A DNA stretch of 63,069 bases, taken from Thermodesulfobacteriota bacterium (GTDB lineage Bacteria; Desulfobacterota; WTBG01; CAIYCZ01; CAIRTM01). This document shows, in pieces, positions 1-24,177 of the stretch. The stretch is from the NCBI GenBank assembly GCA_028282925.1, contig JANQGV010000260.1, forward strand, positions 1 to 63,069. The letters run 5' to 3'. The translations under genes were made by a program, and so were the position numbers. A model generated the notes under the pieces. It searched no databases, was not told where the DNA came from, and worked only from the letters and a program-made list of their open reading frames with translations. Within the stretch, counting starts at the first letter, position 1. The number at the start of each line of letters is the position of its first letter.

Positions 1-438
1 CTTAACGACTATTCTCCCCTCAAACCGGAACCCCTCCGACTTTGCGGTCACGGAAGACGGGCTGCGCTCGATTGAATAGTCATACGTACCGCGTTCGACA
101 AAACAGAGACTCGCCACCGCCCCGAATTCAATGGCATCGGCCACAAAATATCCTTTTTCACTTACCGAGAAATTCACGGGACTTTTACATGCCAGAGTGA
201 CCTTTTTTTCGGGAAAAACAACCTTTACCGTACCCCGGTACTGGTTGAGCCAGATCACGACCGTGCCGGGCTCAATGAACAGGTTCAATGGAGACACCCC
301 CTCATACCCCCTGATTCGAACAACCTTGGATGAGATTGTGAGAACCTCATCCTCTTTTTTTTCAGCGGCGCTTCCCGTACCGGCAGCAAGGCCAAGGACC
401 ACTATACCGGCAAGCACACCCAACAATGTTTTTTTCAT
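1..438 (-). CDS. secreted hypothetical protein, 3' end cut by window edge
   Basis: Absent from the ORF track because there is no stop in the window. ATG at 438-436 (minus) is preceded by AGGGG. Translation MKKTLLGVLAGIVVLGLAAGTGSAAEKKEDE... looks like a Sec signal peptide, and the frame stays open to position 1. It lies 51 nt downstream of the NmrA-like gene on the same strand. Confidence 0.5.
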   Translation of the reverse strand, partial: MKKTLLGVLAGIVVLGLAAGTGSAAEKKEDEVLTISSKVVRIRGYEGVSPLNLFIEPGTVVIWLNQYRGTVKVVFPEKKVTLACKSPVNFSVSEKGYFVADAIEFGAVASLCFVERGTYDYSIERSPSSVTAKSEGFRFEGRIVVK

Positions 439-489
439 GGCATACCCCTATTGTATACAACAAGGTTCCGGCTGCATGCAGCCCACGGC

Positions 490-1377
490 CTACACATCGC
501 CGCCCTGAAGCTGTTCCCGCAACCATGGCTCCAGGCGTTTAAACTCAATGGAAAATGCCCCGGCGATCTCCTGCATGTCTTCATCCGTGCATACGCTGTC
601 ACGGGACATGCGGTAGAGAAAGTCCTTGCCGCCCCGGCTGCCGGTCAGCAGCGCCATCAGGGAAAACAGGGCGTTCATCAGCCACACGGGAATGTGTTTC
701 ACCCGGGCGTCTCTTCCCACAACACCGCCGACCCGGTGAATAATATCCACAAGAGTAAAGACTTCGGGCCCGGCTATTCTGAAGATTCTATTGCGCGCCC
801 TTTCATTATCAAGGGATTGCAGAAATGCTTCTGCCAGGTCGGCGGGATCCAGGGGCTGGATACGGGTCAGGCCGGTACCGATAACGGAAAAGCTGCCCTT
901 CTCTTTAATCTTTGGAGCGAAATGTTCTGCAAAGTCGGTAAAATAGCCCGATGGGCGGAATATCGTATAGGGGATACCGGAGGAGATCACGGCCTGCTCG
1001 GTTTTATATTTTGCCTGCAAGGAGGTTGCCGGCACACCGGCATCCACTCCCAGGGCACTGATATACAGGAGGTGTTTCAGCCCAACCTCTTTCCCGGCGG
1101 AAATGATATTGCGCATTCCGCCGAGTTCAACCATCTCATGGGTCAATTGCTTTGTCTGCCGTTTCAGCCCAATGACAAACAGCGCCGCATCCACCCCCTG
1201 CAGGGCCTGTCTGACCTCGTTGGGGTCGGTAATATCGCCCGAAGCCGCCTCAAGGGTCGGTGCGTCGGTTACAACCGGCGCCTGCAGGTCGAAACACCGC
1301 GCCTTGACATTACGCTCGGCGGCCTTTTTCATAATCTGGCTGCCGACATGACCATTGCACCCTGCGATGAGAATCAT
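490..1377 (-). CDS. NAD(P)H-binding NmrA-like / atypical SDR oxidoreductase
   Basis: N-terminal Rossmann motif MILIAGCNGHVGSQI. Length of 295 aa and overall pattern are typical of the NmrA/NAD(P)-binding family. Confidence 0.7.
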   Translation of the reverse strand: MILIAGCNGHVGSQIMKKAAERNVKARCFDLQAPVVTDAPTLEAASGDITDPNEVRQALQGVDAALFVIGLKRQTKQLTHEMVELGGMRNIISAGKEVGLKHLLYISALGVDAGVPATSLQAKYKTEQAVISSGIPYTIFRPSGYFTDFAEHFAPKIKEKGSFSVIGTGLTRIQPLDPADLAEAFLQSLDNERARNRIFRIAGPEVFTLVDIIHRVGGVVGRDARVKHIPVWLMNALFSLMALLTGSRGGKDFLYRMSRDSVCTDEDMQEIAGAFSIEFKRLEPWLREQLQGGDV

Positions 1378-1445
1378 ATGGCTACCCCCCTTAATAACCT
1401 ATTATACATGTGCGCCGGCACATAGAAACACCCTGCCGCACAAAA

Positions 1446-2777
1446 CTATTCTTCGGAGCCGACCTGTAACGCATCTTCAACAGAGGTGTCATGAAATTTG
1501 TCGAGTTTGGCGCCCAGTTCAGGACGCTCCTTCTTAATCCGGTCCAGATGTCTGAAGATCGCGTTCCTCACGACTCTCGGATCGGAGAATTCATTCACAT
1601 AGCCCTTTCTCGTATCACCACCGGCAAGGCTGAAGAAATAATCAAGCTCCTCGTCTTCCAGGACATGCAGCCCGAAGGCCTGGGTGGCCGCAGCAATCTC
1701 TTTGGGATCATTATACTCAAAGCTTTCTTCCCAAGCGCGTGCATAGGCTTCCAGGCCGGAGCCTGTTTTCAGATACTCGACAATGGCGTTGCCGGCCTGA
1801 AAACCGTACATGACGGCGCCCTGAACATAGGTTTCGATAAACGCGGCCGCATCACCCACAACAACCACATTCCCTTCAACCGGATTGGTCAGGGGTGTGT
1901 GAAAATTAAGAATCGCAGCCCTTTTTTCCACAACGGTGGCCTGTTTGAACCACGGTGAAAAGGCCCCCTGCTGAATAAAGTGCTCAATTTCGGCCCGGGG
2001 CGTATATCCGCCGCCTTCCTGCAGAATAGGGGTCCCGCAGGTAAGCTCATAGACCGGTGGGTCGGTTCGGCCGCCATGGGGCTTGGGACACATATACAGC
2101 TGCCCGCGTCCGCCCATGGTTTGTCCCTTGCCGGCAAAGGTCAACCAGGCATCGGGATAGGGACAGTTCACACCCTCCAGGTGATATGAAGCAACCCCGA
2201 ACCGCGCAAAGAACTTGCGGCGGCTTTTATTCAGCCCGAGACTCTGCACCAGCCGGGAATTGACACCATCGGCGGCAACAGCGACTTTTGCCTGCACCTG
2301 GTACTCGCCGTCGGCATTCTGCAGGGTTACGGTAACGCCGCCGTCAGTATTTTCGACACCCACAGCCTGTGTCTGACAGACTATTGTCACCTGCTCCTGC
2401 TGTACCTGCTGCAGCATATCCTGCAGCAGGGCCTCCTTTTCTATCGACAGGGCCACACACCCGTCCAAACCGGCACCATCAATGACAAACGTTTTGCCGC
2501 CCGGCGAAATCTTTATACTCTTCTTGAGGCCCATTACCTTGCCGCTGTAGGGGATCGAGAAGCCGTTCTCCTTAAAGGTTATCCTGCCGCTATCAAGACC
2601 CACCGCCTCCTTATGCGTACCCGCTTCAATAATAAGGTTGCAACAGCAGGAACGATATACCTTGGCAATCTCCTTTTTCTGCTCAACAAGCAGTACATTC
2701 AGTCCGTTTTTTGAAAGCACGTGTGCCGTCATAAGCCCGGCCGGGCCGGCACCGGCAACTACAACATCATAATCCAT
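1446..2777 (-). CDS. FAD-dependent oxidoreductase, geranylgeranyl-reductase-like (paralog 1)
   Basis: Motifs DYDVVVAGAGPAGL dinucleotide fold, RSCCCNL, AADGVNSRL and VVGDAAAF. C-terminal ERPELGAKL motif is shared with the array at 8.6-17.5 kb. Confidence 0.8.
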   Translation of the reverse strand: MDYDVVVAGAGPAGLMTAHVLSKNGLNVLLVEQKKEIAKVYRSCCCNLIIEAGTHKEAVGLDSGRITFKENGFSIPYSGKVMGLKKSIKISPGGKTFVIDGAGLDGCVALSIEKEALLQDMLQQVQQEQVTIVCQTQAVGVENTDGGVTVTLQNADGEYQVQAKVAVAADGVNSRLVQSLGLNKSRRKFFARFGVASYHLEGVNCPYPDAWLTFAGKGQTMGGRGQLYMCPKPHGGRTDPPVYELTCGTPILQEGGGYTPRAEIEHFIQQGAFSPWFKQATVVEKRAAILNFHTPLTNPVEGNVVVVGDAAAFIETYVQGAVMYGFQAGNAIVEYLKTGSGLEAYARAWEESFEYNDPKEIAAATQAFGLHVLEDEELDYFFSLAGGDTRKGYVNEFSDPRVVRNAIFRHLDRIKKERPELGAKLDKFHDTSVEDALQVGSEE

Positions 2778-2854
2778 AGTTCCGTTACTCCATTCTCTTG
2801 TCTACTGTTTTATTCGCTCCAGTTACGCACACTTTTGCCTGTGCCCTATCTGCC

Positions 2855-4507
2855 TCAGTGACCGCCCATCATCTTCTGCAACTCTTCGGGAGAGAGCACA
2901 TCCGGCCGGGTGGCATAGGGCGGGTTGGAAATGTTGTTCGGGTCGAACTCCCGCTTGATGTCCTTCATAATCAGGTGAATATTGCCGAACGCTTCACCCA
3001 GCATATCGTAGGCCGGTCCCAGCAAATGAATGACCGCCGAAGCCGATTTGCGCTGAAACTGGCTCATGGCGACCCGGCCGATAATCTCGATGGCCTGGTT
3101 GCACTGTTTGGGGTCCTGCTCGGGGAAAACATCCGTTGTATGCAGGCACCAGTAGCCGTATTCCTGGGGACTGATCCAGCCGCCATGCAGGCTCAGGGGC
3201 TGCACAAAATCCTCACCGAGGCCTTCCTCCTTGTGCAATTGACGTCCGATCTCATTGGACTCAAGAATCTCATACACTATTTTATCAATTGAGTCTACAT
3301 TTGATGAACCGATACTGAAATTGTCCGACGGACGGGCCAGGCGCTGGGCATTACCGAACCTGATCCACTCATTTGCGGCCCGTTTGATCCAGGTCTGGTA
3401 GGCGGGCTCATCTTCTTCAACAAAAATCCCGCCCACTTTTTCAACAATTGCCTCGAGCACCTTTTCCTCATAGTCGAGTTGTGCCATTGAGGTTTTTCCG
3501 GACAGGGCGACAACGCAAAAGCCGCTGGGGAACACATCGTTGTTCATATTGTCGTGCAGGTCCTGCTTGGTAACCGAGGAGTAGGTCAGCAGAAACTGCT
3601 GCGCCAGGTGGGTTGCCACCTCACCGATCTCGGCTTTTCCCATTTCGTAGAAAAGTTCGGCCGATTTCTTGAGTTCCAGCTCCTCTTCTTCCGGGTATTT
3701 GAAGGGAAACTTGATCATATACCAGCGCCACAGGTCGCCCAGGGAACCGGAAAACTTCAAGTTGCCGTTACCTTCCGCAGGGAACACCTCCGGCCCGGAA
3801 AAGGGCCACAGCTTACAGCTTATTTTTGTTACGATGCCGATGCCGCCGGCATGCCCGAACATGCCGCCCCGCAGAAAGCCACGCAGGTCGGGCCCCGGGC
3901 CGTCGTTCCAGAACCAGCCCGATTCCGGGCAGGCGGTGGAGCCGCTGCGCACCAGGGTGCCGTCCGGCAGCACCAGCTCAAACCCCAGCAGGTTCTGGGC
4001 TCCGATACCGGTAATCCAGCTGTTGCCGTAGGCGCCGTGCCAGGAATAGTTTGCCAGGCAGGATACCTGACTGCCGGCCAGGGGTGTCGGCGTGTACAGT
4101 CCGTAGCGCATGGCTTCCGCCTGCAACCCGGCAAAGCTGACATAGGGCTCGATTACGGCATACATGTCTTTCTCGTTCAATTCAATAATACTATCCATAC
4201 GCTTGGGGTCGATGACGACCGTACCGCCCTGGGTCGGAAATGCCTGAAACGTGAAACCTGAGCCCCGGGGTATAAAAGGAAATCCGTACCGATTGGCGAT
4301 TTTGACCACCTGTTGCACCTCTTCGACCGACTCCGGCATTACCACGCAGGCCGGACGCATATTGAGGCCGCAGTTCTCACGCTGCATGACCCCGGAGGGG
4401 AGCCACTGCACCCGGGAGTACGACTGGCAAAGCACCGGATCATCGGTTACATTATCCTGCCCCACACAATCCTGTAATGCTTTAAACGCTATATCTGAAA
4501 ATGCCAT
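2855..4507 (-). CDS. FAD-binding oxidoreductase, PCMH/VAO (GlcD-like) family
   Basis: FAD_binding_4-like segment RPACVVMPESVEEVQQVVKIANRYGFPFIPRGSGFTF. C-terminal IKREFDPNNISNP is typical of FAD-linked oxidases. GGAGG RBS lies before the ATG at 4507. Confidence 0.8.
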   Translation of the reverse strand: MAFSDIAFKALQDCVGQDNVTDDPVLCQSYSRVQWLPSGVMQRENCGLNMRPACVVMPESVEEVQQVVKIANRYGFPFIPRGSGFTFQAFPTQGGTVVIDPKRMDSIIELNEKDMYAVIEPYVSFAGLQAEAMRYGLYTPTPLAGSQVSCLANYSWHGAYGNSWITGIGAQNLLGFELVLPDGTLVRSGSTACPESGWFWNDGPGPDLRGFLRGGMFGHAGGIGIVTKISCKLWPFSGPEVFPAEGNGNLKFSGSLGDLWRWYMIKFPFKYPEEEELELKKSAELFYEMGKAEIGEVATHLAQQFLLTYSSVTKQDLHDNMNNDVFPSGFCVVALSGKTSMAQLDYEEKVLEAIVEKVGGIFVEEDEPAYQTWIKRAANEWIRFGNAQRLARPSDNFSIGSSNVDSIDKIVYEILESNEIGRQLHKEEGLGEDFVQPLSLHGGWISPQEYGYWCLHTTDVFPEQDPKQCNQAIEIIGRVAMSQFQRKSASAVIHLLGPAYDMLGEAFGNIHLIMKDIKREFDPNNISNPPYATRPDVLSPEELQKMMGGH

Positions 4508-4566
4508 GTGTTCCTCCTGTCTCTATATGACATGTATCTGTCATGCCGACGGTTGCTGTCGGTCAT

Positions 4567-6054
4567 CTAAAATCCCAGCTTGCCGGGATTCAATATCTTG
4601 TTCGGGTCGAGCAGCCCCTTTATGCGTTTCAGGGTTTCGTGCAGCGTCCCGGTCCGCGGGTACACGAGCCGGTCCCAGTCGCCGTAAATGCGGTAAAAGA
4701 AGGCGCCCTTTTGCACCAACGCCCGGCTGACGGCTTTACACACGGTATCGATCAGCTCTTTTTCTTCCGGGTCTTCCGGGTTAAACGGAAAGCTTGCCTC
4801 CATATGGAAGGCCCTGCCGTTCTGTTTGGGCTGCAGGTACAGGCCGATTTCATCCAATGGATAGCGCTCCTGATGTGCGGTCTCCCGGATAACCTGCAGA
4901 AACTCGGGAGCCCGCTGGAGCTGGGTCAAAAAGAAAATTTCACGCGAAGCCCCCTTTGCCCCGGCCTTCCAGTATGTTGCACCGTCCCAGGGCTGGTAGA
5001 GATACTGAGAAATCGCTGCTGCGGCATCCGGCACATTGGGAAGCGTTTCCATGGGCGTAAAGAGAAAGGTTTTGGCGGCCTCATGCAGGGCCTCTTCCTG
5101 GTAGGCCATCTTTTCTTCCGGGTACCACTCCCCGGCGGTCAGGTTAAGCACAATAACATAGGGCGGCAGTGCTGCGGCAATACCGCCGACATCTTCCGGA
5201 GACGGAGCGAGAATGGAAGCCAGGTAACGGCTGTTCAAAAGAAGGCATTCATCCCCGATCAGTTTCCGCTCGATATGGTACAGGGGGGCAACACAATCTT
5301 CCAGGCGGTCGAATCCCATGAACATCACTTTCCGGGCTGTTGGAACAAAGCCTGCTTTTACGTTCATAACCGTTACAATACCATAGGTACCCAGGCTGCC
5401 GGGCACCAGCCGGAACCAGTCGACGCCCGGGCCCATGAAGTTACATAAATCGCAGGGGACTTCATCGGGTATTTTTTCCGGCGCCATGGGATCAATGGAC
5501 ATAGAACCGGTATGGAACAGGTTGCCGTTGGGCAGCACCATCTCCATCGTGAGTATGGTTTCGTCCAGATGGTGCTTTGGCGTCAGCCGGGGCTCTCTTT
5601 CAAGACAGCTGGTGATAACCGACTTGTCACGATGCGGCAGCAGGGGAATCATGGCCCGCATGCCTTCTTTTCCAAGCTCTGCCTGCAGCTCACCGTAGGT
5701 AACACCGGCTTCAAAAAGGGCCCACTTGTTGCGCTTGTCAATTCGCCGTATTTTTTTCATTCCGCTCATATCAACCACGATACCACCCTGTTCCGGTATA
5801 GCGGCACCGTAAAACCCGACACCGGAGCTTTTCGGCACCACCGGAATGCGGTTCTCGTTTGCGATTGTGACCACCTGCTGCACTTCTTCGGTTGTCAGAA
5901 CCTTCACGGCCATATCGGGCTTCCGGTTCATGGTATAGCTTGTATCTGTTGCGTACCGGGCCAGAAAATCAGGATCAACCGAAATACGGCTGCTGTCGAT
6001 GCTGCCGGCCAGTCTGCCGGTGAGATCTTTCACACTTGTTATTGCCTGTGTCAT
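4567..6054 (-). CDS. FAD-binding oxidoreductase, PCMH/VAO (GlcD-like) family
   Basis: Motifs KPDMAVKVLTTEEVQQVVTIANENRIPVVPKSSGVGF and C-terminal IKGLLDPNKILNPGK. I prefer the ATG at 6054 (AAGGAGGAAGT directly upstream) over the ORF-track start at 6084. Confidence 0.8.
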   Translation of the reverse strand: MTQAITSVKDLTGRLAGSIDSSRISVDPDFLARYATDTSYTMNRKPDMAVKVLTTEEVQQVVTIANENRIPVVPKSSGVGFYGAAIPEQGGIVVDMSGMKKIRRIDKRNKWALFEAGVTYGELQAELGKEGMRAMIPLLPHRDKSVITSCLEREPRLTPKHHLDETILTMEMVLPNGNLFHTGSMSIDPMAPEKIPDEVPCDLCNFMGPGVDWFRLVPGSLGTYGIVTVMNVKAGFVPTARKVMFMGFDRLEDCVAPLYHIERKLIGDECLLLNSRYLASILAPSPEDVGGIAAALPPYVIVLNLTAGEWYPEEKMAYQEEALHEAAKTFLFTPMETLPNVPDAAAAISQYLYQPWDGATYWKAGAKGASREIFFLTQLQRAPEFLQVIRETAHQERYPLDEIGLYLQPKQNGRAFHMEASFPFNPEDPEEKELIDTVCKAVSRALVQKGAFFYRIYGDWDRLVYPRTGTLHETLKRIKGLLDPNKILNPGKLGF

Positions 6055-6099
6055 ACTTCCTCCTTGTTTAACCAGGGTTAACAAACCCGGTGGGTGCGA

Positions 6100-6285
6100 C
6101 TACGATTCCTGTCCCTCCGTTGCATAGGGAGCGCCGACCGGGCACACCTGCACACAGATCATACACTCAACACACTTGTCATTGTCTACGGTTACCGTAT
6201 CGTCAATCATCCGGATAGCCGTTTTCGGACACAGATCGATACAGCCGCCGCACACCAGACACTCTTCAGTATTAATGTGTACCAT
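6100..6285 (-). CDS. 2x[4Fe-4S] ferredoxin (61 aa)
   Basis: Two CxxCxxCxxxCP motifs: CLVCGGCIDLCP and CVECMICVQVCP. Confidence 0.85.
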   Translation of the reverse strand: MVHINTEECLVCGGCIDLCPKTAIRMIDDTVTVDNDKCVECMICVQVCPVGAPYATEGQES

Positions 6286-6415
6286 TATCTTCCTCCTATT
6301 TTATACCAACAACTCTTCGCATCATCTCCGTTACAGGAAACTGCTGGGGAATGTTCAGATACAAGGCGCGCGACTTCCTGGGGAGTGAGGCGTACATGTC
6401 TGTACGCCGCAGGGA

Positions 6416-6463
6416 CGAAGGATGAGCGCAACGCAGTAGATGGGCGTTCTCCAGCGGTTTCCT
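6416..6463. repeat. 47-nt intergenic repeat, copy 1 (REP-like)
   Basis: cgaaggatgagcgcaacgcagtagatgggcgttctccagcggtttcc aligns with copies at 27400-27446 and 31806-31852. It contains a short AACGC..GCGTT hairpin. Confidence 0.6.
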
Positions 6464-7007
6464 AATCTTTTTTGCCGACTATGTACTCCCCCTCAAAAGC
6501 AATATACTTAATTGCTATTCCTTTAACCCCGGCATATCCGGGATAGACGTCACCGTATACTTCAACGGTTCTGCCCACCATGGGCACCATGGTGGCCCAG
6601 GTAAAAAGACCTTCACGTTTCTGCTCGGGCGTTAAAACCCGTGGCATACGATATGCCTGGGCGCTCTGGGTAACGGCTTGGCCCCTTGGTAGTGTGGGGT
6701 AATAGAGTGTGCCGTCGCCTGCCAGCAAAAATATCTTGCTGTTGCGCTCGGCGCTTCGCTTTGCATTTTCAAGTTCTTCAGCGGTATAGGGCCTCTCCTG
6801 GGGCACCGTAGTTCCGTTGAAAAGAGAGTTTCCTTCCACAAACACCCCTTTAATGGTCTTACCGTCCCGGGAAGCGGCGAAAAACACCTCTTCCATGTTT
6901 TTTACCTTTTCCGCATGCTTTTCCTTATAGTTCTTGTCTTCGGCCCGGGTTGTTCCAGCCAGGAGTACTGCAAAAACAATACAGCATAGTATAAGTACCT
7001 GTCGCAT
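6462..7007 (-). CDS. secreted hypothetical protein
   Basis: ATG at 7007 is preceded by GGAGG. MRQVLILCCIVFAVLLAGTTRAEDK looks like a signal peptide. I recognise no family. Confidence 0.55.
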   Translation of the reverse strand: MRQVLILCCIVFAVLLAGTTRAEDKNYKEKHAEKVKNMEEVFFAASRDGKTIKGVFVEGNSLFNGTTVPQERPYTAEELENAKRSAERNSKIFLLAGDGTLYYPTLPRGQAVTQSAQAYRMPRVLTPEQKREGLFTWATMVPMVGRTVEVYGDVYPGYAGVKGIAIKYIAFEGEYIVGKKD

Positions 7008-7055
7008 AGCGTATTCCTCCTTACGCATATCCATAACGTATGTGGAACGGTTTTT

Positions 7056-7928
7056 TCAGGTAATATCCTTTGACTCGATCATGCCGTCCTTCCGCCGGCG
7101 CAGGTCTTTAACAATCAGATACGTGGATATAACGAATCCGGCGATAATCACCGACATGATGGTCCAGTTGATATGCACCCACGGCTCTTTGAGCATACCC
7201 CATTTGGCCAGAATTTCGATATCGTTCCAGAGAATCGTTACTGTTGGTATGGCATACCTGAGATTTGCCCCGAAGCGGTCATAGCCCAGCAGTTTGTAGC
7301 ACAGGTAAAAAAAGACTGAAAATGAAGCGAAAAAGAGCACATAGATAAACCAGGAGTGAGCCCCGAACAGCTCTTCATCATAGCCGATCATCAGCATGAC
7401 GTAGAAGGTCCAGGTGACCATAATATATTCAAAAGCGGTACGGGGACCGTAGTTACTGATTTTGCCGGTGGCTATCGCACCCCGCATCAGCCGCAGCTTG
7501 CGCCGCAGGAAAAAAATGAAATTACACCGAACGCTCTCCTGGAACAAAAGGTAGACGAAGACCATGATCAGGAGCATAAAGGTCCATTTCATCATCCGGT
7601 ATTCAGGGTAGCTGCCGTTCCAGGTATAGGTTACCCCCAGCCGGTGTCCGCCGTACATGAGGCTGTATTCAAAGGCGAACCAGAGCCCCAGGCCGCCGAG
7701 GCATCCGATGAAGCTCTGCCATCCGTCGGATTTCATAAAACGGGTGGAATAGATTGCGAAAAAGCCGACCAGGGCGGACGTCCAGGCGAAATCATACTTG
7801 ATGCCCGGGTTGTATTTCTCGATCAGCACCATCACGATATGCCCGATGGCTGAAAGTCCGAAAATCCACACCAGGGATATCGTGGTATAAAATATTGCTT
7901 TGAATGAAATCGGTTTCTTTGTAGCCAA
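7056..7928 (-). CDS. polytopic integral membrane protein, unknown family
   Basis: 290 aa with about 8 hydrophobic segments rich in W/F/Y. Same strand as its neighbours and tightly spaced. Confidence 0.6.
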   Translation of the reverse strand: MATKKPISFKAIFYTTISLVWIFGLSAIGHIVMVLIEKYNPGIKYDFAWTSALVGFFAIYSTRFMKSDGWQSFIGCLGGLGLWFAFEYSLMYGGHRLGVTYTWNGSYPEYRMMKWTFMLLIMVFVYLLFQESVRCNFIFFLRRKLRLMRGAIATGKISNYGPRTAFEYIMVTWTFYVMLMIGYDEELFGAHSWFIYVLFFASFSVFFYLCYKLLGYDRFGANLRYAIPTVTILWNDIEILAKWGMLKEPWVHINWTIMSVIIAGFVISTYLIVKDLRRRKDGMIESKDIT

Positions 7929-7984
7929 GTCAAACCCCCTCTCTACGCATTGAGCAGTATGCTGCTCATACGCAAAATGCAGTT

Positions 7985-17543: not shown

Positions 17544-18614
17544 TTAAAAATCCGCAAGTCCGAACTCCTCCATATCATACCTGAAGCCCGAAAGCAGATC
17601 CCATGCCCTTCCGCCGCTCTCAGTCCGGGCAATTGCGCCCTGGGCACCGACGATCAATCCGTGCTGCTCATTATTAAAAGCCACTTCGCGCAGCCAGAAT
17701 TTCGTCTTTATCAATCCGTCCCTGACCGACCAGGTTTCGCCGCCGTTGTCTGATTGCAGATATACTCCCTTGTTTCCCACAATCCAGCCCCGATTGCCCT
17801 GTACCGCCAGCGAATACAACGGCTTATCCGTACCTGATTCGATTTTTTCCCAGTTGACACCTCCGTCAACAGTCTTGAGGATGACCCCGTCCATCCCCAC
17901 AATCCAGCCCCGTCTGCGATCGAGAAAATACAAACCGTATAAAGCCGGCAGCGGGCGCTCCCATTCAAATGCACCGGCCTGCGGCACAATATCCCGGCAC
18001 TCCTGGGGAGTCCAGGTTGCGCCATCGTCGGTTGTGTGCAATATGGTACCGAACTCTCCCACGATCCAGCCGAATGACTCGTCGACAAAAAACACATCAT
18101 TATAGAGCGTGTCCTGGGGCTCTCGCTGCTCGGACCAGGTAGAACCCCCGTCCGCGGTATGAATAACGGTACCGAATTCTCCTACCGCCCACCCTTTCTT
18201 TGCATCGAGAAAGAACAGATCCAGAATATTACTGTCGGTCCCGGTGTTCTGCTCCTGCCAGGTAGTACCGCCGTCAACGGTGTGCACGACCCTGCCGCCT
18301 ACCCCGCCGGCCCATCCCCGCTGCCGGTCTACAAAGGTAATCGTGCACAGCAAAAAATCAGATATACCGCTTTTTTGCGGCTGCCAGTTTTTGCCCCTGT
18401 CGGCACTGAACAAAATAGTCCCGTAATTTCCACAGACCCAGATATGCTCGGCATCTACATAGGCAATGCTGTGCAGATTTTCCGTGGTCACAAAATCAAA
18501 TTCGGGCATTTTGATCTTGGAACGGTCGAATTTCCCGCAGCCGGTCATACACATTATGGCCTGAAAAGCCAGGACCCAGCCGATAGCCGCGAAGAGGTTG
18601 TTGTACTTTATCAT
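17544..18614 (-). CDS. BNR/Asp-box repeat lipoprotein, Ycf48/HCF136-like beta-propeller
   Basis: Seven (D/S/N)GGxTW-like repeats: DRGKNW, DGGTTW, DGGSTW, DDGATW, DGGVNW, NGGETW, SGGRAW. The signal MIKYNNLFAAIGWVLAFQAIMCMTGC carries a Cys lipobox. ATG at 18614. Confidence 0.75.
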   Translation of the reverse strand: MIKYNNLFAAIGWVLAFQAIMCMTGCGKFDRSKIKMPEFDFVTTENLHSIAYVDAEHIWVCGNYGTILFSADRGKNWQPQKSGISDFLLCTITFVDRQRGWAGGVGGRVVHTVDGGTTWQEQNTGTDSNILDLFFLDAKKGWAVGEFGTVIHTADGGSTWSEQREPQDTLYNDVFFVDESFGWIVGEFGTILHTTDDGATWTPQECRDIVPQAGAFEWERPLPALYGLYFLDRRRGWIVGMDGVILKTVDGGVNWEKIESGTDKPLYSLAVQGNRGWIVGNKGVYLQSDNGGETWSVRDGLIKTKFWLREVAFNNEQHGLIVGAQGAIARTESGGRAWDLLSGFRYDMEEFGLADF

Positions 18615-18648
18615 ATGGCTACTTTCCACGTTGCGGTCGCGCATATAA

Positions 18649-19905
18649 CTAATAGCTTCTCACCTTCAGGCTTTTCACCTGAAACAGGGTCAGGGGTATC
18701 TCTATGCCGATACCCTTGATTTCCCGGTTACCGGGACTTCCATGGTGCCGGATAAAATCAACAATATGCTCACCGTTGAAAAGGGCTGTTTGCTCCCCGC
18801 CGTATGACGGATAGACATTGGTATACATCTCATACATCTTCCAGAGCTGGCCCTGGCGGTTGTACATTACTTTAAAATTCATCTGCCAGGTCTCCGGGTC
18901 GAGATACCAGACCTGCTTGCTGTAAACATAGTCCGGCTCTTTACTGACGACCTCCACCACCCAGTGATTGACGCGCTCCCGCTGGACACCGCTCCAGAAT
19001 CCCTGGCCGGTAATGCGCTCCAGTTTTGCCGGGTCCTGGTGGCGGGCAAACAGCAGGTCTTTTCTTCCCAGGTATTTATATGTATTATGGCCAAGGTGAG
19101 TATACCAGCCGTCCTGATCGTCATAAATCATATCGGTTCCGTCGATCGTGTCGGTCCGCTGGCTGGTGGCATAGCGCCTGATACGCCGAAACATGGCGGT
19201 ATACACCCATAAATCGGTTGCCCGTGTCAGGTCCTTATATTTCAGCTCGAGCATGGTGGTGTCCACAAAGTCGGCCGGGGCGGCATGCCGCTGAAAAAAC
19301 GAAAGAGTGATATCCCGGGGGTTGTCCTTTTTGCTGAATTTCGGTACCGGCGGAACATCATAGCGTCCCATCCAGCGCATTTCCCAGCGCAGCTGTTTTG
19401 CATCACGTTCGTGCCTGGTACGACAATCGACAACCGTGCCGGTATGTATGATGTGATGGCTGTCTCCTTTGGTATTGGAATCGAAGTTCCATGCCATCTC
19501 AGCCCCGGTTGTGGGCTGGGGAAAAGGGATACCGGCAACGTCGCCATACCCCACCAGGTCGTTGTTAACATCCAGGCTCCCCGGGGCGTGCTTTTTGGTG
19601 GCCGCGATCATGCCCTTTGTTACCGGGAGGGGCTTATAGGGGACGATCTCAAACCAGATGGATTCGGCGCCGAAGATCGACGGCTCTTTAACAGCTTTAT
19701 ATACCGCTTCATGCAGATACTCCTTTACCTGGTCGACATTCTCGGCCGTGATTTTTTTACCGGCCCATGTTTTTTCCCATTCCCTGACGTTCCGCAGTTC
19801 ATCGCCTTCATATGAGGGCACGGGGAAACGAACTTCGCCGGCGTGCACCAGCGACACGCATACGACTCCCAGGATGCAGCTGCTGAAAATGCGAAATAAT
19901 TTCAT
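18649..19905 (-). CDS. DUF1329-family (LolA-like, outer-membrane lipoprotein-sorting-like) periplasmic protein
   Basis: Signal peptide plus AGIPFPQPTTGAEMAWNF and FRRIRRYATSQRTDTIDGTDMIYDD, which resemble DUF1329 signatures I recall. It holds the canonical position next to a DUF1302 gene. Confidence 0.65.
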   Translation of the reverse strand: MKLFRIFSSCILGVVCVSLVHAGEVRFPVPSYEGDELRNVREWEKTWAGKKITAENVDQVKEYLHEAVYKAVKEPSIFGAESIWFEIVPYKPLPVTKGMIAATKKHAPGSLDVNNDLVGYGDVAGIPFPQPTTGAEMAWNFDSNTKGDSHHIIHTGTVVDCRTRHERDAKQLRWEMRWMGRYDVPPVPKFSKKDNPRDITLSFFQRHAAPADFVDTTMLELKYKDLTRATDLWVYTAMFRRIRRYATSQRTDTIDGTDMIYDDQDGWYTHLGHNTYKYLGRKDLLFARHQDPAKLERITGQGFWSGVQRERVNHWVVEVVSKEPDYVYSKQVWYLDPETWQMNFKVMYNRQGQLWKMYEMYTNVYPSYGGEQTALFNGEHIVDFIRHHGSPGNREIKGIGIEIPLTLFQVKSLKVRSY

Positions 19906-19953
19906 AAAAACATCTCCTCATCATAAGGTGAGTGTAAACGGCTGACCATTGTC

Positions 19954-21579
19954 TTAAAACTCATACCCGATCCGAAAATAGATCGAATCTTTGTTTTCGG
20001 CATAGGCCTCCTTGGAATCATGCGGGTCCCGGGCAAAAAACCAGAGGTAGCCAAGCTCATAGCGCATATGTTTTCCGGGCGTATACCGCATGGCAAATAC
20101 ACCGTAGCCCCAGTTGCGGGTATTATACAGGAACCGCATCGTGGGCCACAGCTCGTTATGCCGCAGTTTGCCGCGAACCGTCAGGGTGAAGTTACACTGC
20201 GAGCGGTCCTGGTAGCCGAAGGTCGACCGCCAGCGGGTTACATTCCCGAGGCGCCACTGCCCGAACCAGCCCATGGTCACATCAAGCACTCCGCTTGAGC
20301 CCCAGCGCTGCGCCAGCCAGTTCCAGCGCACCGGCCGGTCAAAGGTGATACCGACATTGATCTGGTCGCGCTCGCTGGTGCCGGTAATCGGCTTTTCACC
20401 GCCGGGTGTCGGATCGATGTGCAGCGGATACGCCTTGTTGATCGGCAGCCCGATTTCATAGGAGAACTCGCCGCGCACCACTCCTTTCAGGGCCGGAACA
20501 AAGGTCTGGCAGCTTGCGCCGACAGCGTCAAAAAACTTGTAGCGCCAGAAACTGTCGTGGGTAAGGTGCGGCAGTGCGAAGCCCAAAACCCGGCTGGGAA
20601 ATGCGTTGCGGGTGAGATACCCGTTGAGGGTGCGGATGTTGAAATTGCCGGTGGGGTTGCCGCGGGTTTTATTGCGGGCGACCGGGGTGCTGTTCATGCC
20701 GTGATACCAGCTCACCGTCCAGTCCAGCAGATATATTTCGCCGAACAGCGACACTTCCGAATTACCGCGGATCCTGAAGGCCCATTGGGAATTACGCAGC
20801 GTAAAGGCCGGCCGGGCCCGGTGAAACATGCGGTTTACCGCCGCGCTCTGGCCGAAAGGCCGGGGGCGCCGGTACTTGGGGCCCTGCGGCGCAGGGATGG
20901 CACCCATGCTGGTTCCTTCCATCGGGGAACGCACCTGCTCGAAATCTCCCGGAATCCAGATCCACTCAAACACGAGCTGGCCGGGCAGGTTGGAGTTGTA
21001 AAACCCCCGCATCATCCACAGCCCCAGCTTCATCTCATCCCAGGGGTCGATTCCCGGGGTGGTGTAGCGCAGATCGAGTGGGTTGATCCGGTCGATGGTG
21101 CGCACCATTTCAACTTCACTCCAGAAAACGATCTGCTTGCCCAGTCGGATATTCCAGTTGCCGAAATAAATGTCGGCATAGAGTTCATTGATCCAGTCAT
21201 CCTGGTCATAAAACGGCCCCTGGTACCGTTTATGGTTGCGCCGCTCGATGCTCCGTTTATATTCCTGGTCAAAATCGGGAACCCCCTCATGCCACCACTG
21301 GAAAAAACCGAACAGGTTGATCATGACATCCTTGTTTTCAACCGCTTTGTACAGCAGCTCAAGGGTACCCTTTGTGCGCATCAGCCCCCAGTCGGTATCG
21401 CGGTACTGACGCTCTTCACGCTTCAGGTCGGTACGATACATCATAAATTCGTACAGACTGCCCTTTATCCTGAGTTTGCCGTCCAGCACGTGGTATGCGG
21501 CATCGCTCGGTTCGGGAACGAGCACATACCCTGCGGCAAGAGCGGCCAAAAACAAAAACCAGGTATATTTTTTCATCAT
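19954..21579 (-). CDS. DUF1302-family outer-membrane beta-barrel protein
   Basis: Signal peptide MMKKYTWFLFLAALAAG. Alternating aromatic/hydrophilic pattern and C-terminal ...YFRIGYEF (terminal Phe, as in OM barrels). Confidence 0.65.
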   Translation of the reverse strand: MMKKYTWFLFLAALAAGYVLVPEPSDAAYHVLDGKLRIKGSLYEFMMYRTDLKREERQYRDTDWGLMRTKGTLELLYKAVENKDVMINLFGFFQWWHEGVPDFDQEYKRSIERRNHKRYQGPFYDQDDWINELYADIYFGNWNIRLGKQIVFWSEVEMVRTIDRINPLDLRYTTPGIDPWDEMKLGLWMMRGFYNSNLPGQLVFEWIWIPGDFEQVRSPMEGTSMGAIPAPQGPKYRRPRPFGQSAAVNRMFHRARPAFTLRNSQWAFRIRGNSEVSLFGEIYLLDWTVSWYHGMNSTPVARNKTRGNPTGNFNIRTLNGYLTRNAFPSRVLGFALPHLTHDSFWRYKFFDAVGASCQTFVPALKGVVRGEFSYEIGLPINKAYPLHIDPTPGGEKPITGTSERDQINVGITFDRPVRWNWLAQRWGSSGVLDVTMGWFGQWRLGNVTRWRSTFGYQDRSQCNFTLTVRGKLRHNELWPTMRFLYNTRNWGYGVFAMRYTPGKHMRYELGYLWFFARDPHDSKEAYAENKDSIYFRIGYEF

Positions 21580-21654
21580 ACCCCCTTTACATCAGGCAGA
21601 AGTGCCCCCTGCACTTGTGCTCTCGGGTTCACAAACGTCATGCACATCGGCTTT

Positions 21655-21710
21655 AATACGGTTAAGTAAAAACTTCGGCTTTAATACGGTTAAGTAAAAA
21701 CTTCGGCTTT
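21655..21710. repeat. perfect 28-bp tandem duplication (2 copies plus 8-nt partial third) across the RND gene stop
   Basis: aatacggttaagtaaaaacttcggcttt occurs at 21655-21682 and again at 21683-21710. tcggcttt at 21647-21654 is a partial copy. Confidence 0.95.
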
Positions 21711-24007
21711 ATAATGCAGATAAGCGTCGGTACCAGTAACAGGGCACCCAGCATATTTAAAAACAGCAGGATAGCCAGCAGGACACCCATTTCGGCTTGA
21801 AACTTCAGAGACGAAAAAATCCAGATCACCAGGCCGATGGTAAGCGTGGTGGCGATCTGGATGATTGCCTTGCCATTTGACCGCAGAGTTCTGTAAATTG
21901 CCTGGGACAGCGAATCGGCTCCCTTGCACTCTTCGCGCAGGCGGCTCATAAAATAGATACCATAGTCCACACCGAGACCGATGCCCACCGATGAAACCGG
22001 ATAGGTATTGACCGTCAGCCCGATATGGTAGGCGCCCATCAGGGCAAAGGTGAGAACGTTGGAGATCGCAAGCGGAATGGTCAGGATAAAACCGGCGGCA
22101 AGCGATCTGAAATTCAGAGCACAAAATATAAAAATACCACCTAAAGCAAAAACAAGGTTCCAGATCTGGGCGTCGGCTATCACCTCTCTGACACCGGCCT
22201 GAACGCCGACGGCCCCGCCGGCAAGAACATACTTCCCTCCCGGCGGACCGGGGTTTTTATCGATATAGCTGCGGATATAGCCGATAACGTCCTCAACGGT
22301 TTTGGGCATTTTGTCCCGGCAGTAGATGACGATATTGGCGGTAGTGTCTTTCATATCGACATAGCGGTCCCACGTGCCGGGTTCCCCGGTATACAGCAGC
22401 TTGCGCGCGCAAAAACTCATAACCCGGTCCTCTTTGGGCAGATGATACCATTGCGGATCATCCTCATAGGAAGCCATCAGAAAGCCGGGCAGGCTGTTGA
22501 CGATGGAATAGGTAAACATTACCCGATCATGCTGCATCATATAGCGCTGAAAGGTGTTCATCTCGCGCAACGTCGACCCCTTGGTCACGAACCCGCCCTC
22601 ATCTCCTTCCAGGATCACATACAGCGGGTTGAGCAGCGGGATGCTGAAGGTGATACGAAATGCGTCTTTATTATAACGGTGGAAAGGCCACAAAATCGAG
22701 GAGCCGGGCAGAAAATCACCCACTTGAATCCGGCCGGCATAGTTCCATCCCACGCTGACAATGGCAATGGTAACAACCAGTACATACCATTTACCCCGGC
22801 CCGGTATCCAGTTGCCGATAACGCCCAGGAAGCGGTCGCGATACGTGCCCCCCTGGCTGCGCTGCCGTTCCATTAAGCGCTGCATGCGTTTCGAATCCGG
22901 CAGGCAGGCCAGCAGCAGCGGAGACAGCACGACCGATAGAATAATGGTGGCGACACACCAGAAGCTGCAGGATATTGCAATGTTCATTAAAATGGGAATG
23001 GTTGCGATTGCCACCAGCGCAATACCCAGGGCATCGGTTATAATGCTGGTAATGCCCGGCATGAACATGGTTTCAATCGTGGTGACCGATGCGGCACGGA
23101 TATCCCGCACGGTTTCATATTCTTCAATATAGCGGCTGATACACTGCATGGAATGCCGGGCGGTCATCAGGGATATGAGGAACGGCAGCACCAGGATGAG
23201 TGGATCGAGGCTGAAACCGACAATCGACATGAAACCCAGGCCCCACACCGCACTCAAAGCGGCCGACAACACCGGAATCAGCACGGCGCGAATGCTTTTA
23301 TAGTATAGAAAAAGCATGATGATAATACCCAGGACCGTAATGCCCAGCACACCCACCACCTGTTTCGTGTGGTGATCGATGTACCCCAGGTGCATGGGCT
23401 CGCCTGCGATATTTATAATATGGTTGTCGTCTTCAGTATGCTCCCGTATCCGGCTGAACTCGTTGAAAACCGCTTTGTAATCGATATCATCCTCGAAAAA
23501 ATCAACCATGATCAGGGTTTTTTTGCTGTCATAGGAAACATACTGGCCGTAATAGCGGGGATTGCTGTAAATCTTGTCCCGCAACTCCTGCATTTCCTTT
23601 TCATCAGACGGAACATTCGGATACATCAGGGGGGTAATGGACATGGTCCCGGAAGTAAACTTAAAGTCCTTCATTTTGGAAATGGCAATCGACCTGATCT
23701 TGTAGGGGTCAACACCCGGAATCTTTTCCAGCTCACGGGTTATCCATTTTACTTTTTCAAGGGTTTGGGTATTGAAAATATCGCCGTCGCGGACCTGCAC
23801 CATAAGCAGAACCTGGTTGGCTCCCCCGAAGATGTTGCGGATTTTATTATGTACCTTGATAAACGAATGTTTTTGCGGAAGCAGATCGCTGAAGCTGGTC
23901 CGTATGGGCAGTTGCAGACAGTGATAGAAAAAAAAGAGTGTAATAAGGCCGATAATTCCGATTACGGCCAGGCGATATTTTACAAGCGTTTGTGCAAAAT
24001 ATTTCAC
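21662..24007 (-). CDS. RND-superfamily (MMPL-type) membrane transporter
   Basis: About 780 aa with two 6-TM bundles and large loops, as in HpnN/MMPL-like exporters. I prefer the GTG at 24007 (AGGAGAACAGG upstream) over the ORF-track start at 24088. Confidence 0.75.
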   Translation of the reverse strand: MKYFAQTLVKYRLAVIGIIGLITLFFFYHCLQLPIRTSFSDLLPQKHSFIKVHNKIRNIFGGANQVLLMVQVRDGDIFNTQTLEKVKWITRELEKIPGVDPYKIRSIAISKMKDFKFTSGTMSITPLMYPNVPSDEKEMQELRDKIYSNPRYYGQYVSYDSKKTLIMVDFFEDDIDYKAVFNEFSRIREHTEDDNHIINIAGEPMHLGYIDHHTKQVVGVLGITVLGIIIMLFLYYKSIRAVLIPVLSAALSAVWGLGFMSIVGFSLDPLILVLPFLISLMTARHSMQCISRYIEEYETVRDIRAASVTTIETMFMPGITSIITDALGIALVAIATIPILMNIAISCSFWCVATIILSVVLSPLLLACLPDSKRMQRLMERQRSQGGTYRDRFLGVIGNWIPGRGKWYVLVVTIAIVSVGWNYAGRIQVGDFLPGSSILWPFHRYNKDAFRITFSIPLLNPLYVILEGDEGGFVTKGSTLREMNTFQRYMMQHDRVMFTYSIVNSLPGFLMASYEDDPQWYHLPKEDRVMSFCARKLLYTGEPGTWDRYVDMKDTTANIVIYCRDKMPKTVEDVIGYIRSYIDKNPGPPGGKYVLAGGAVGVQAGVREVIADAQIWNLVFALGGIFIFCALNFRSLAAGFILTIPLAISNVLTFALMGAYHIGLTVNTYPVSSVGIGLGVDYGIYFMSRLREECKGADSLSQAIYRTLRSNGKAIIQIATTLTIGLVIWIFSSLKFQAEMGVLLAILLFLNMLGALLLVPTLICIIKPKFLLNRIKAEVFT

Positions 24008-24102
24008 CCTGTTCTCCTGTGAGGGATAGGAAGGCCATGTTACGGGAAGCCGAGCTATGGATTCACCCCCATGCAAATCCATACACAAGTTATACAGACA
24101 CG

Positions 24103-24116
24103 TTCTTGCGCAAGAA
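24103..24116. promoter_or_regulatory. perfect 14-bp palindrome TTCTTGCGCAAGAA (candidate operator)
   Basis: Read directly from the sequence. It lies between the candidate promoter (24149-24177) and the RND start. Confidence 0.3.
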
Positions 24117-24148
24117 AAATAGTTAGACAGTCAAACTATTTAAAATTT

Positions 24149-24177
24149 AAACTATTATATTTTTTTATTATTGTCAA
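24149..24177 (-). promoter_or_regulatory. candidate sigma70-type promoter for the RND/DUF1302/DUF1329/BNR operon
   Basis: The minus strand reads TTGACA-17 nt-TAGTTT in a very AT-rich 260-nt intergenic region. Same architecture as the 8542-8570 candidate. Confidence 0.3.

Follow-up and report, generated by a model that had tools for sequence, protein, structure and literature searches.

Positions 1-24007 of contig JANQGV010000260.1, which belongs to an uncultured sulfate-reducer-type bacterium of the Thermodesulfobacteriota from anoxic lake mud, carry a cluster of genes in which a four-component module of the cell envelope is joined to a series of flavoproteins resembling the archaeal geranylgeranyl reductases (GGRs). 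The novelty of the locus resides in this junction of an Ame-type envelope system with a GGR-like clade devoid of any prior biochemistry. All positions refer to the window, i.e., the whole stretch of 63,069 nucleotides that was analysed. The cluster comprises 20 consecutive coding sequences (CDS), numbered here along the minus strand on which all of them are located, as obtained by open reading frame (ORF) listing and translation; the chance of 19 successive same-strand choices is about 2e-6. An earlier note on this DNA, made from the sequence alone, had described the same 20 CDS with the same domains, a description reproduced by the ORF listing and by Pfam and NCBIfam labels, which leave three proteins without a family, one of them multi-transmembrane and two secreted. 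The intergenic gaps within the cluster measure 4-176 nt. The values of 7 nt (14772-14778) and 4 nt (18645-18648) given in that note are exact, but the range of 45-111 nt given for the other gaps has to be corrected to 9-176 nt, the widest gaps being those before the ferredoxin gene (176 nt) and before the second MarR gene (143-170 nt). Beyond 24.1 kb, the genes for an aminotransferase, ArsP and ArsR are unrelated to the cluster. Hydropathy, scanned in a simple way and without SignalP, indicates signal segments in the proteins of the envelope module and none in the flavoenzymes, in agreement with the prediction that the enzymes are cytoplasmic and the module resides in the envelope.

The envelope module (17544-24007) consists of four adjacent genes whose products all score above the cut-offs of PF03176, PF06980, PF07044/PF17131 and PF14870. 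It is made of an AmeD-like RND inner-membrane transporter of the MMPL/HAE3 type (21662-24007, PF03176 114 bits), an AmeA-like DUF1302 outer-membrane β-barrel with an N-terminal signal-like sequence (19954-21579, PF06980 44.9 bits vs a cut-off of 23.2), an AmeB-like, LolA-like DUF1329 periplasmic protein with a signal peptide (18649-19905, PF07044 132 bits and PF17131 40 bits), and an AmeC-like β-propeller of the BNR/Ycf48 type, probably a lipoprotein with a lipobox-like MTGC motif (17544-18644, PF14870 144 bits). The RND gene starts with a GTG codon preceded by the ribosome-binding site AGGAGA, the longest ORF extending to 24088. Its product finds its best NCBIfam match in TIGR00921 (HAE3), over the full length and with an E-value of 1e-52, the score of 179 bits being below the cut-off of 351.9, and its nearest solved structures are MmpL4/5, HpnN and MmpL3. 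According to the definition of the tetrapartite system (DUF1302, LolA-like DUF1329, COG4447 BNR/Ycf48 and RND pump; PMC6394551), the module is, as judged from its families, an AmeABCD/'Nanopod'-type tetrapartite HAE3-RND system.

Such DUF1302/DUF1329/BNR/RND units are widespread and phenotypically important for hydrocarbons. AmeABCD of Castellaniella defragrans is encoded in an anaerobic monoterpene island, and its deletion results in a poorer growth on unfunctionalised monoterpenes, an impaired dye efflux and an increased accumulation of Nile red (PMC6394551). In Shewanella, Kangiella and Pseudomonas, the four module genes form a co-fitness unit (bioRxiv 072470; bioRxiv 2020.07.04.188060). 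Deletion of the DUF1329 gene of the 'Nanopod' cluster impairs the growth of Delftia on phenanthrene, and 'Nanopod' proteins occur among the most abundant proteins of the anaerobic benzene degrader 'Ca. Anaerobenzenivorax' ORM2a, whose 'Magic' and 'Nanopod' proteins share ~23-36% identity with those of distant metagenome-assembled genomes (MAGs) from wastewater and freshwater sediment (PMC13101534). A paper of 2026 reports no solved structure for DUF1302 and predicts a DUF1302-DUF1329 complex. Given these genetic and proteomic links to monoterpenes, phenanthrene and benzene, the former statement that the function of the module had not been established experimentally is outdated. The uptake role proposed at the same time has no precedent, all the solved or characterised RND relatives (MmpL3/4/5, HpnN, AmeD) being exporters, which argues against a simple uptake.

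The module of the window thus shares with AmeABCD, with the co-fit unit of Shewanella and Pseudomonas and with the 'Nanopod' of Delftia Cs1-4 and ORM2a the same four families encoded together, a likeness of family content; like AmeABCD and 'Nanopod', it sits, in an anaerobe, among genes that would transform hydrophobic compounds, and its RND protein probably belongs to the HAE3/MMPL branch. It differs from AmeABCD by the order of the genes (here D-A-B-C), by a regulation of the MarR instead of the LuxR type, by its partners, which are GGR-like, VAO and ferredoxin genes here and ctm, mrc or geo genes there, and by the host, an uncultured lineage of Thermodesulfobacteriota.

Seven GGR-like flavoproteins with a PHBH-type fold, numbered 1 to 7, are encoded at 16162-17487, 14779-16116, 12933-14309 (likely start 14258, MTSKYD), 11469-12827, 10060-11415, 8626-10026 (likely start 9951) and 1446-2777, respectively. 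They share 26-42% pairwise identity, with the exception of GGR-like 1 and 2, which are 66% identical. TIGR02032 (GG-red-SF) is the best NCBIfam match for all four paralogues tested, i.e., GGR-like 1 (68.9 bits), 3 (84.7 bits), 6 (75.1 bits) and 7 (99.6 bits), whereas GGR-like 2, 4 and 5 were assigned from Pfam together with the alignment of the paralogues. A profile of the seven paralogues searched against the Protein Data Bank (PDB) retrieves as best match the GGR from Thermoplasma (Ta0516, PDB code 3oz2), over the full length with an E-value of 3e-21, ahead of FixC and flavin monooxygenases. Similarly, the AlphaFold2 (AF2) model of GGR-like 1 (pLDDT 89.4) yields 3oz2 as the top match in Foldseek (E 1.2e-23, TMt 0.72), four orders of magnitude ahead of halogenases, the Sulfolobus GGR and FixC. 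Among 41 sequences, the invariant residues comprise GxGxxG (G11, G13, G16), R44-x-C46, ADGxNSR and GD...E. The R44-x-C46 motif is present in all seven paralogues, and the ungapped part of the 3oz2 profile alignment ends at R44; a residue-by-residue match of the invariant Cys to Cys47 of the Sulfolobus GGR was attempted and not obtained.

The resemblance to the archaeal GGRs from Thermoplasma (3oz2) and Sulfolobus (3atq) accordingly covers the best profile and structural match, C-terminal helical domain included, and the Rossmann motif for FAD binding, as well as an invariant Cys that would lie close to Cys47 of the GGRs. The differences consist of identities of 14-16%, TM-scores of 0.58-0.72 and scores below the TIGR02032 cut-off, of the occurrence of seven diverged paralogues in a single operon of a bacterial host without any lipid-biosynthesis context, and of the ties between GGR-like genes and NuoEF-like modules in sister loci. 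The identification as GGR relatives made in the earlier note therefore stands with respect to profile, fold and best family, but the proteins are not bona fide GGRs: owing to the sub-cut-off scores, a degenerate cavity motif and the unaligned Cys, they have been filed as GGR-like. They form a small clade, with 150 clusters (50% identity) at E<=1e-30 among 1.84 billion representatives. The isoprene reductase from Acetobacterium was considered as a relative and rejected; it belongs to a GltD/NfnB-type family and offers an analogy only.

Two MarR-family regulators are interspersed in the array, MarR1 (14319-14771, PF01047 42.6 bits) between GGR-like 2 and 3, with orthologues at the same place in L001, L004, L016 and L023 (L-numbers designate loci retrieved in the comparative genome and metagenome scans), and MarR2 (7985-8482, PF01047 52.3 bits) after GGR-like 6. 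Next come a multi-transmembrane protein, TMunk (7056-7928), without any Pfam match even at E<=10, and a secreted protein of 190 amino acids, secUnk (6462-7034), also without a family, which always accompanies TMunk. Within the cluster, TMunk shows the strongest conservation (76-89% identity in relatives), and it belongs to a rare, unannotated family of 99 clusters in 5.8 billion proteins; TMunk and secUnk are inseparable in the Desulfobacterota, and distant TMunk homologues from Schekmanbacteria, Krumholzibacteria and Phycisphaerales occur in unrelated gene contexts with no GGR-like neighbours. A ferredoxin of 61 amino acids with two [4Fe-4S] clusters (6100-6285, PF00037 and PF12838) follows, its orthologue occupying the same position in L001, L009, L013, L016 and L023, and then two VAO/PCMH-type flavoproteins, VAO1 (4567-6084) and VAO2 (2855-4507), both recognised by PF01565 with scores of 84 and 76 bits. 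After GGR-like 7, an atypical short-chain dehydrogenase/reductase (SDR) of the NAD_binding_10/NmrA-like type (490-1377, PF13460 74.8 bits) has SimC7, NDUFA9 and triphenylmethane reductase as nearest solved structures. The last gene, cut by the window edge, encodes a small secreted protein, sec20 (1-438, 146 amino acids), 64% identical to a 150-amino-acid orthologue of L122, where it also follows the NmrA-like gene and is the last conserved gene, so that the window contains essentially the whole unit.

The conservation of this arrangement was followed in a one-genome-per-species scan with GGR-like 1, which returned 30 loci whose ORFs were mapped onto the proteins of the window. All 30 stem from MAGs of uncultured Thermodesulfobacteriota/'Deltaproteobacteria' from anoxic lakes, sediments and soils. 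The order RND-DUF1302-DUF1329-BNR-GGR1-GGR2-(MarR1)-GGR3-GGR4-GGR5-GGR6-MarR2-(TMunk-secUnk)-Fd-VAO1 recurs in L001/L005, L004, L009, L012, L013, L016, L021 and L023, and in a shortened form in L006, with identities of 55-85%; at least nine species-level MAGs of Thermodesulfobacteriota carry it, and every paralogue has its own positional orthologue in the syntenic loci. L023 even has the upstream aminotransferase in common with the window. In the reverse direction, a metagenome scan with the DUF1329 protein revealed 11 further contigs with the GGR array directly after the BNR gene. The following counts are limited to loci with enough flank. Where DUF1329 is at least 57% identical, a partner family of the cluster occurs in 16 of the 17 loci (GGR array in 10, unk579 group in 5, TMunk/secUnk in 4, sec20 in 3 and VAO in 2); at 46-56% identity, VAO1-VAO2 directly follows DUF1329 in 5/5 loci, and at 45% or less a partner family still occurs in 10 of 13.

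Upstream of the RND gene, a promoter-like element, TTGACA (24177-24172) with a 17-nt spacer and TAGTTT, is read on the minus strand at 24149-24177. It is followed at 24117-24141 by AAATAGTTTGAC-T-GTCTAACTATTT, a palindrome of 25 nt for which 0 chance matches are expected; it extends over the predicted transcription start and is a candidate operator for MarR. In all nine syntenic MAG loci, a CTTGACA + 17 nt + TAnTTT-type arrangement precedes the RND gene, with a TTTGA-n3-5-TCAAA-type palindrome at the same position, a phylogenetic footprint of the kind usually seen where a repressor site covers the start of transcription. The perfect 14-nt palindrome TTCTTGCGCAAGAA (24103-24116), which the earlier note had named as a candidate site for MarR binding, does exist but is conserved in none of the relatives; as an operator it is unsupported, and the adjoining 24117-24141 element is to be preferred. 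A second copy of the operator motif, TTGGATAGTCTAAATAT (8524-8540), lies in the gap before MarR2, within a promoter/operator element of the minus strand and just after an internal promoter-like site, TTGACA-17-TAGATT (within 8511-8570, 10/12 matches), the best such site of the region. The motif has two matches in the 63 kb, each just downstream of a promoter-like site, the pattern having been built from those same two. With its short, promoter-free GGR6-MarR2 gap, the cluster looks like a single operon in the relatives; in the present genome it is probably split into two or three units sharing the same operator. Intrinsic terminators inside the cluster were considered and rejected, as terminator-like sites show no excess over the shuffled control (22 found vs 21.1 expected). 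An Rfam scan of the whole window found no family, and the leader of ~135 nt is thus without a known riboswitch. The 176 nt that precede the ferredoxin gene include a GC-rich hairpin without a T-run, TGAGGCGTACA-n4-TGTACGCCGCA (6363-6411); in the relatives, this gap is short.

These data bear on the simplest alternative, that the envelope module, the reductase array and the VAO block are accidental neighbours under independent regulation. Such a view could point to the two wider gaps, to the promoter-like site in the gap before MarR2 and to the fact that TMunk/secUnk, the CCG subunit, GGR7 and the NuoEF genes are present or absent among the relatives. It is very improbable, however, since the order is kept in at least nine MAG species and 11 metagenome contigs, close DUF1329 loci almost always carry a partner family (16/17), the GGR6-MarR2 gap lacks a promoter in the relatives, both promoters of the window have the same operator motif, and terminator-like sites do not exceed the background. 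The comparative data largely refute an accidental juxtaposition: the arrangement is by no means unique to this genome, and synteny together with the shared promoter and operator supports the original view of the envelope module and the flavoenzyme array as one conserved and co-regulated unit.

The ferredoxin encoded inside the cluster is of the clostridial type. The GGR from Methanosarcina acetivorans depends on an adjacently encoded ferredoxin (PMC10821996), which confirms the precedent invoked in the earlier note, and the cluster similarly encodes a ferredoxin alongside its GGR-like genes. In sister loci (L003, L007, L010, L014 and L025), a block Fd96-unk299-NuoE-NuoF(+Fer4)-Fer2/Fer4(NuoG-N-like)-Fd77 lies between two GGR-like genes, a GGR7-like gene coming after Fd77; together with the flanking GGR-like genes, it spans 11531-17640 in L003. 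In L004, L006 and L012, the supercluster is directly succeeded by Fd96-unk299 and, as far as the sequence continues, by NuoE and NuoF. GGR-like 7, 44% identical to a 433-amino-acid protein of L003, is thus of a type that pairs elsewhere with a ferredoxin and a NuoEF-like module. Such a set of NuoE-like, NuoF-like with an extra Fer4, and NuoG-N-like proteins between GGR-like genes resembles the bifurcating modules of the HydBC/NuoEF (Bfu-like) type. It differs from HydBC/Bfu modules in that no hydrogenase or formate-dehydrogenase catalytic subunit occurs in the sister-locus module, and the window contains no such module; electron bifurcation by the NuoEF-like proteins is conjectural. The low potential of these electron partners favours the reductase direction for the GGR-like enzymes. 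By its composition, the block is a HydBC/Bfu-type Fe-S flavoprotein module linked to NADH, none of its proteins being a known catalytic subunit; in L025 it is preceded by VAO1-CCG-VAO2-EtfB-EtfA.

For the direction of the reductases, the class of their substrate, the ligand of the regulators, the direction of transport and the physiological role, we infer the following scheme, which is tentatively preferred as possible rather than probable: the cluster would serve a MarR-derepressed handling of an exogenous hydrophobic compound rich in C=C bonds, followed by its ferredoxin-driven hydrogenation. The operon would be repressed by MarR, the main promoter/operator being located before the RND gene and, in the present genome, a further operator copy preceding MarR2. 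An exogenous compound that is hydrophobic and carries several double bonds, most likely of the isoprenoid type (terpenoid, prenyl chain or polyene), would partition into the envelope, where the compound itself or a derivative would release the MarR repressors. The module, with its DUF1302 barrel, DUF1329 carrier, BNR propeller and HAE3 pump, would shift either the compound or a product of it between inner membrane and cell exterior, a transport which, by precedent, would amount to controlling the membrane load through extrusion. The GGR-like enzymes, for which an isoprenoid substrate is suggested by their relatives, would draw electrons from the co-encoded ferredoxin and, in sister loci, from the NADH module of NuoE-, NuoF- and NuoG-N-like proteins, and hydrogenate non-activated C=C bonds, each paralogue being devoted to another bond or substrate. 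VAO1/VAO2 and the NmrA-like SDR could add an oxygen-independent hydroxylation, dehydrogenation or keto-reduction. The net outcome would be that the compound is detoxified and/or serves as an electron sink. The cluster contains no CoA-ligase or β-oxidation genes and is consequently read not as a pathway for complete degradation but as a module for transformation or for the disposal of electrons.

The VAO pair introduces another possible class of cargo. As far as the FAD domain is concerned, the nearest matches of VAO1 and VAO2 are 4-phenol-oxidising enzymes. In VAO1, a Tyr (GFYG) and a Tyr-Arg (FFYR) align with AYGG and EYRTH of the vanillyl-alcohol dehydrogenase 8s7t, i.e., with the phenolate-binding triad (Tyr108, Tyr503 and Arg504 in VAO numbering); the C-terminal part of the alignment, carrying the Tyr-Arg, scores only 11 bits, which makes the triad a lead rather than a proof. 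VAO2 is devoid of the triad. Its AF2 model is of medium quality (pLDDT 68.7, with long low-confidence stretches), and Foldseek, which places EUGO, VAO, 4-ethylphenol oxidase and PCMH at 1e-17 (TM ~0.6) and D-lactate dehydrogenase at 1e-16, cannot separate on this model 4-phenol oxidases from D-2-hydroxyacid dehydrogenases. Between VAO1 and VAO2, the relatives encode a CCG Fe-S protein (L122, at 8556-9851, L016, L076 and its relatives, and L025), and this VAO1-CCG-VAO2 triad exhibits the GlcD-GlcF-GlcE-like architecture of the ORM2a 'Magic' proteins 24-26, a GlcDEF-like FAD/Fe-S/FAD complex. No CCG homologue was found in the 59-nt VAO1-VAO2 gap (4508-4566) or anywhere in the 63 kb. Conversely, GGR-like 7 is inserted in the window and absent from L122. 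With respect to the 4-phenol-oxidising VAO/PCMH enzymes (p-cresol methylhydroxylase, eugenol oxidase, vanillyl-alcohol dehydrogenase), the resemblance thus lies in the FAD_binding_4 fold with its VAO-type cap and, as a lead, in the Tyr/Tyr-Arg of VAO1, whereas the window lacks CCG, VAO2 lacks the triad, identity falls below 20% outside the FAD domain and, unlike for PCMH, no cytochrome c gene occurs in the cluster. The missing CCG partner, along with the missing CoA-ligase and β-oxidation genes, makes the term self-contained, formerly applied to the system, doubtful.

A hydrophobic phenol (4-alkyl- or alkenyl-phenol, lignan, alkylresorcinol or prenylated quinol) could accordingly be the cargo, VAO1 and VAO2 (with CCG in relatives) catalysing an oxygen-independent para-alkyl hydroxylation or dehydrogenation, and the GGR-like enzymes reducing either C=C bonds of the side chain or the ring itself, as the ferredoxin-dependent resorcinol reductase does. 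Resorcinol reductase is a ~50-kDa FAD protein, and MarR regulators often sense phenolics, two points in line with such a cargo. So are the mention of a ferredoxin-dependent resorcinol reductase in PMC10470551, the induction of DUF1302/DUF1329 genes by p-cresol in Thauera (bioRxiv 072470), the 'Nanopod' cluster and the GlcDEF-like complex as top proteins of the benzene degrader (PMC13101534), the nearest structures of VAO1/VAO2, the triad residues of VAO1 conserved in its orthologues, and the VAO1-CCG-VAO2 set found directly after DUF1329 in a second clade (5/5 loci, including L069, L070, L074 and L076). This reading is nevertheless unlikely, in view of the 11-bit alignment that carries the Tyr-Arg, the lack of the triad in VAO2, the poor separation of 4-phenol oxidases from D-lactate dehydrogenases by Foldseek, the absence of ring-cleavage, CoA-ligase and β-oxidation genes from the cluster, the ~30% identity of the ORM2a proteins to relatives from such MAGs, and the structural kinship of seven paralogues with a prenyl reductase.

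The second clade illustrates a more general swapping of partners around the envelope module, which, on the basis of gene neighbourhoods, is a modular toolkit built around one envelope machine. In paralogues of the module with a DUF1329 58-63% identical, a cytoplasmic protein of 579 amino acids without known function, unk579, replaces the GGR array, and a bilin-reductase homologue (PF05996, Fe_bilin_red, 53.1 bits vs a cut-off of 31) comes after BNR-unk579 in L058, L059, L062 and L081, in the last case after unk219/unk244. In L061, a short contig, this homologue lies just downstream of BNR, and in L082 it is accompanied by two GGR-like genes, MFS transporters and a CDF metal exporter. In another set of loci (L022, at 816-9971, L032 and L027), GGR1-like + MarR + MarR + sec20 follows an Ahb-type haem/sirohaem operon, 30 nt downstream. 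This partner swapping keeps both phenolic and tetrapyrrole substrates alive as rivals. The Ahb-type operon contains HemD/CobA, HemB, HemL, HemA, two radical-SAM genes, a NirDL-like decarboxylase and SirC; the bilin-reductase homologue of L058 is located at 14561-15268, and its hosts are MAGs of non-phototrophic Desulfobacterota.

Cargo derived from chlorophyll, bacteriochlorophyll, bilins or haem would have the GGR-like enzymes acting, in a BchP-like manner, on prenyl tails or on macrocycle and vinyl bonds. It would be consistent with the PF05996 homologue above cut-off in the Ame-type loci (L058, L059, L061, L062, L081, and L082 with its two GGR-like genes), with the sequel to the Ahb-type operon, with a faint resemblance of unk579 to ferrochelatase (E 0.11) and with the origin of the MAGs from stratified lakes rich in phototroph detritus. 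Decidedly improbable is what this reading becomes, however, once it is considered that the bilin-reductase and haem-operon genes all lie outside the cluster of the window, that the chelatase resemblance is not significant, that the NmrA-like protein shows no specific relation to BLVRB/ChuY, that the adjacency to the haem operon is limited to one closely related set, and that the bilin-reductase loci, the distant L082 excepted, are without GGR arrays. Two candidates were rejected in this connection: the NmrA-like protein as a relative of the biliverdin/anaerobilin reductases BLVRB/ChuY, its nearest solved structures being generic atypical SDRs, and unk579 as a chelatase, the resemblance to ferrochelatase being accompanied by no PDB sequence match. 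The unk579 protein follows BNR in L052, L058, L059, L062 and L081, and the GGR7-like gene of the NuoEF-type module in L003, L010 and L025. The window itself harbours, at 41761-43431 on the minus strand, a cytoplasmic protein of 556 amino acids with no Pfam match, 49% identical to unk579 and made of two halves, each starting with a hydrophobic strand followed by HG.

Finally, the GGR-like enzymes might saturate an isoprenoid of the bacterium itself (a squalene/hopanoid precursor, a polyprenol or the side chain of menaquinone), which the module would export to the outer membrane. The solved RND relatives HpnN and MmpL3/4/5 export endogenous lipids or siderophores, Price et al. have proposed the export of a cell-wall component for the module (bioRxiv 072470), members of the GGR family such as MenJ and BchP are biosynthetic, and in L003 (1-3194) squalene-hopene cyclase and squalene/phytoene synthase occur ~7-10 kb upstream of a 68%-identical GGR-like gene. 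That adjacency, however, is a single case with sugar-modifying and PadR genes in between, and neither the cluster nor its orthologues contain a prenyltransferase, terpene synthase or lipid-assembly gene. Moreover, the two MarR repressors and the operator point to an inducible rather than a housekeeping expression, the module swaps to catabolic-type partners (VAO-CCG-VAO and the bilin-reductase homologue), and the GGR-like clade is tiny and limited to one lineage. An endogenous lipid is thus quite improbable as the cargo.

The preferred reading, i.e., the hydrogenation of an exogenous, C=C-rich hydrophobic compound, has to face several points of its own. The TIGR02032 scores of the four paralogues tested (68.9-99.6 bits) remain under the curated cut-off of 158.8, and flavin halogenases, monooxygenases and FixC are close structural runners-up in Foldseek. 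The PxxYxWxFP cavity motif is degenerate, only its last Pro (P237) being invariant, with variants such as VPFCLLP, IMIWVEP, GYMFIFP, VYIFLLP and GQLYMCP among the paralogues; according to a review, this motif is poorly conserved among archaeal GGR paralogues as well. A single archaeal GGR saturates every bond of its substrate, so that seven paralogues are not obviously needed. The VAO1 residues at the phenolate-triad positions, kept in the orthologues, speak for a phenolic substrate and against a purely isoprenoid one, and sister loci carry the homologue of a ferredoxin-dependent bilin reductase. The characterised RND relatives all export, which equally fits tolerance or the export of an endogenous lipid. 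In addition, the relatives all come from one lineage of uncultured MAGs, and part of the conserved order could therefore reflect vertical inheritance.

As the module is fixed in one operon with its presumed enzyme partners and sensor-regulators, the identification of its cargo becomes testable. Should the GGR-like enzymes hydrogenate unactivated C=C bonds with ferredoxin, they would represent new anaerobic alkene reductases of interest for biocatalysis, and would reveal which organisms are responsible for the saturation of isoprenoid lipids and pigments in sediments devoid of oxygen; in combination with the NuoEF-like modules, a new energy-conserving electron sink could result. A broader and quite unlikely extension would be that uncultured anaerobic Thermodesulfobacteriota from stratified lakes and from sediments possess modular loci for hydrophobic substrates, in which an Ame-type machine is combined with interchangeable ferredoxin-dependent reductase sets. 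These sets may comprise GGR-like arrays, VAO-CCG-VAO triads, and the bilin-reductase homologue with a chelatase-like protein. The version of the window would hydrogenate polyunsaturated detritus of isoprenoids or pigments as an electron sink; the detritus may consist of carotenoids, phytol or farnesol chains, prenylquinones and terpenes, and energy may be gained via the NuoEF/Bfu-like NADH-ferredoxin modules. If true, this would amount to an 'alkene respiration' and provide a biological pathway by which isoprenoids are hydrogenated during early diagenesis, a process usually ascribed to abiotic sulfide chemistry.

Other parts of the window contain a few additional features. Two flavoproteins of the Amino_oxidase family (CrtI/phytoene-desaturase/HemY-like) are encoded 20 kb from the cluster, at 45010-46530 on the minus strand and 50451-51848 on the plus strand, with a PMT_2 glycosyltransferase-like gene and a gene for a protein of 499 amino acids without known function between them. 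A run of genes at 53159-58722 on the minus strand, comprising three radical-SAM genes (one MiaB-like with UPF0004 and two SPASM), a methyltransferase and a 356-amino-acid protein without known function, may correspond to a peptide- or cofactor-modification cluster. A Flavodoxin_5 protein (36037-36711, minus strand) is followed by a PEBP-family protein with an N-terminal extension (36756-37523, plus strand) and, at 38556-41702 on the plus strand, by a hybrid histidine kinase of 1048 amino acids made of five PAS domains and a receiver domain.

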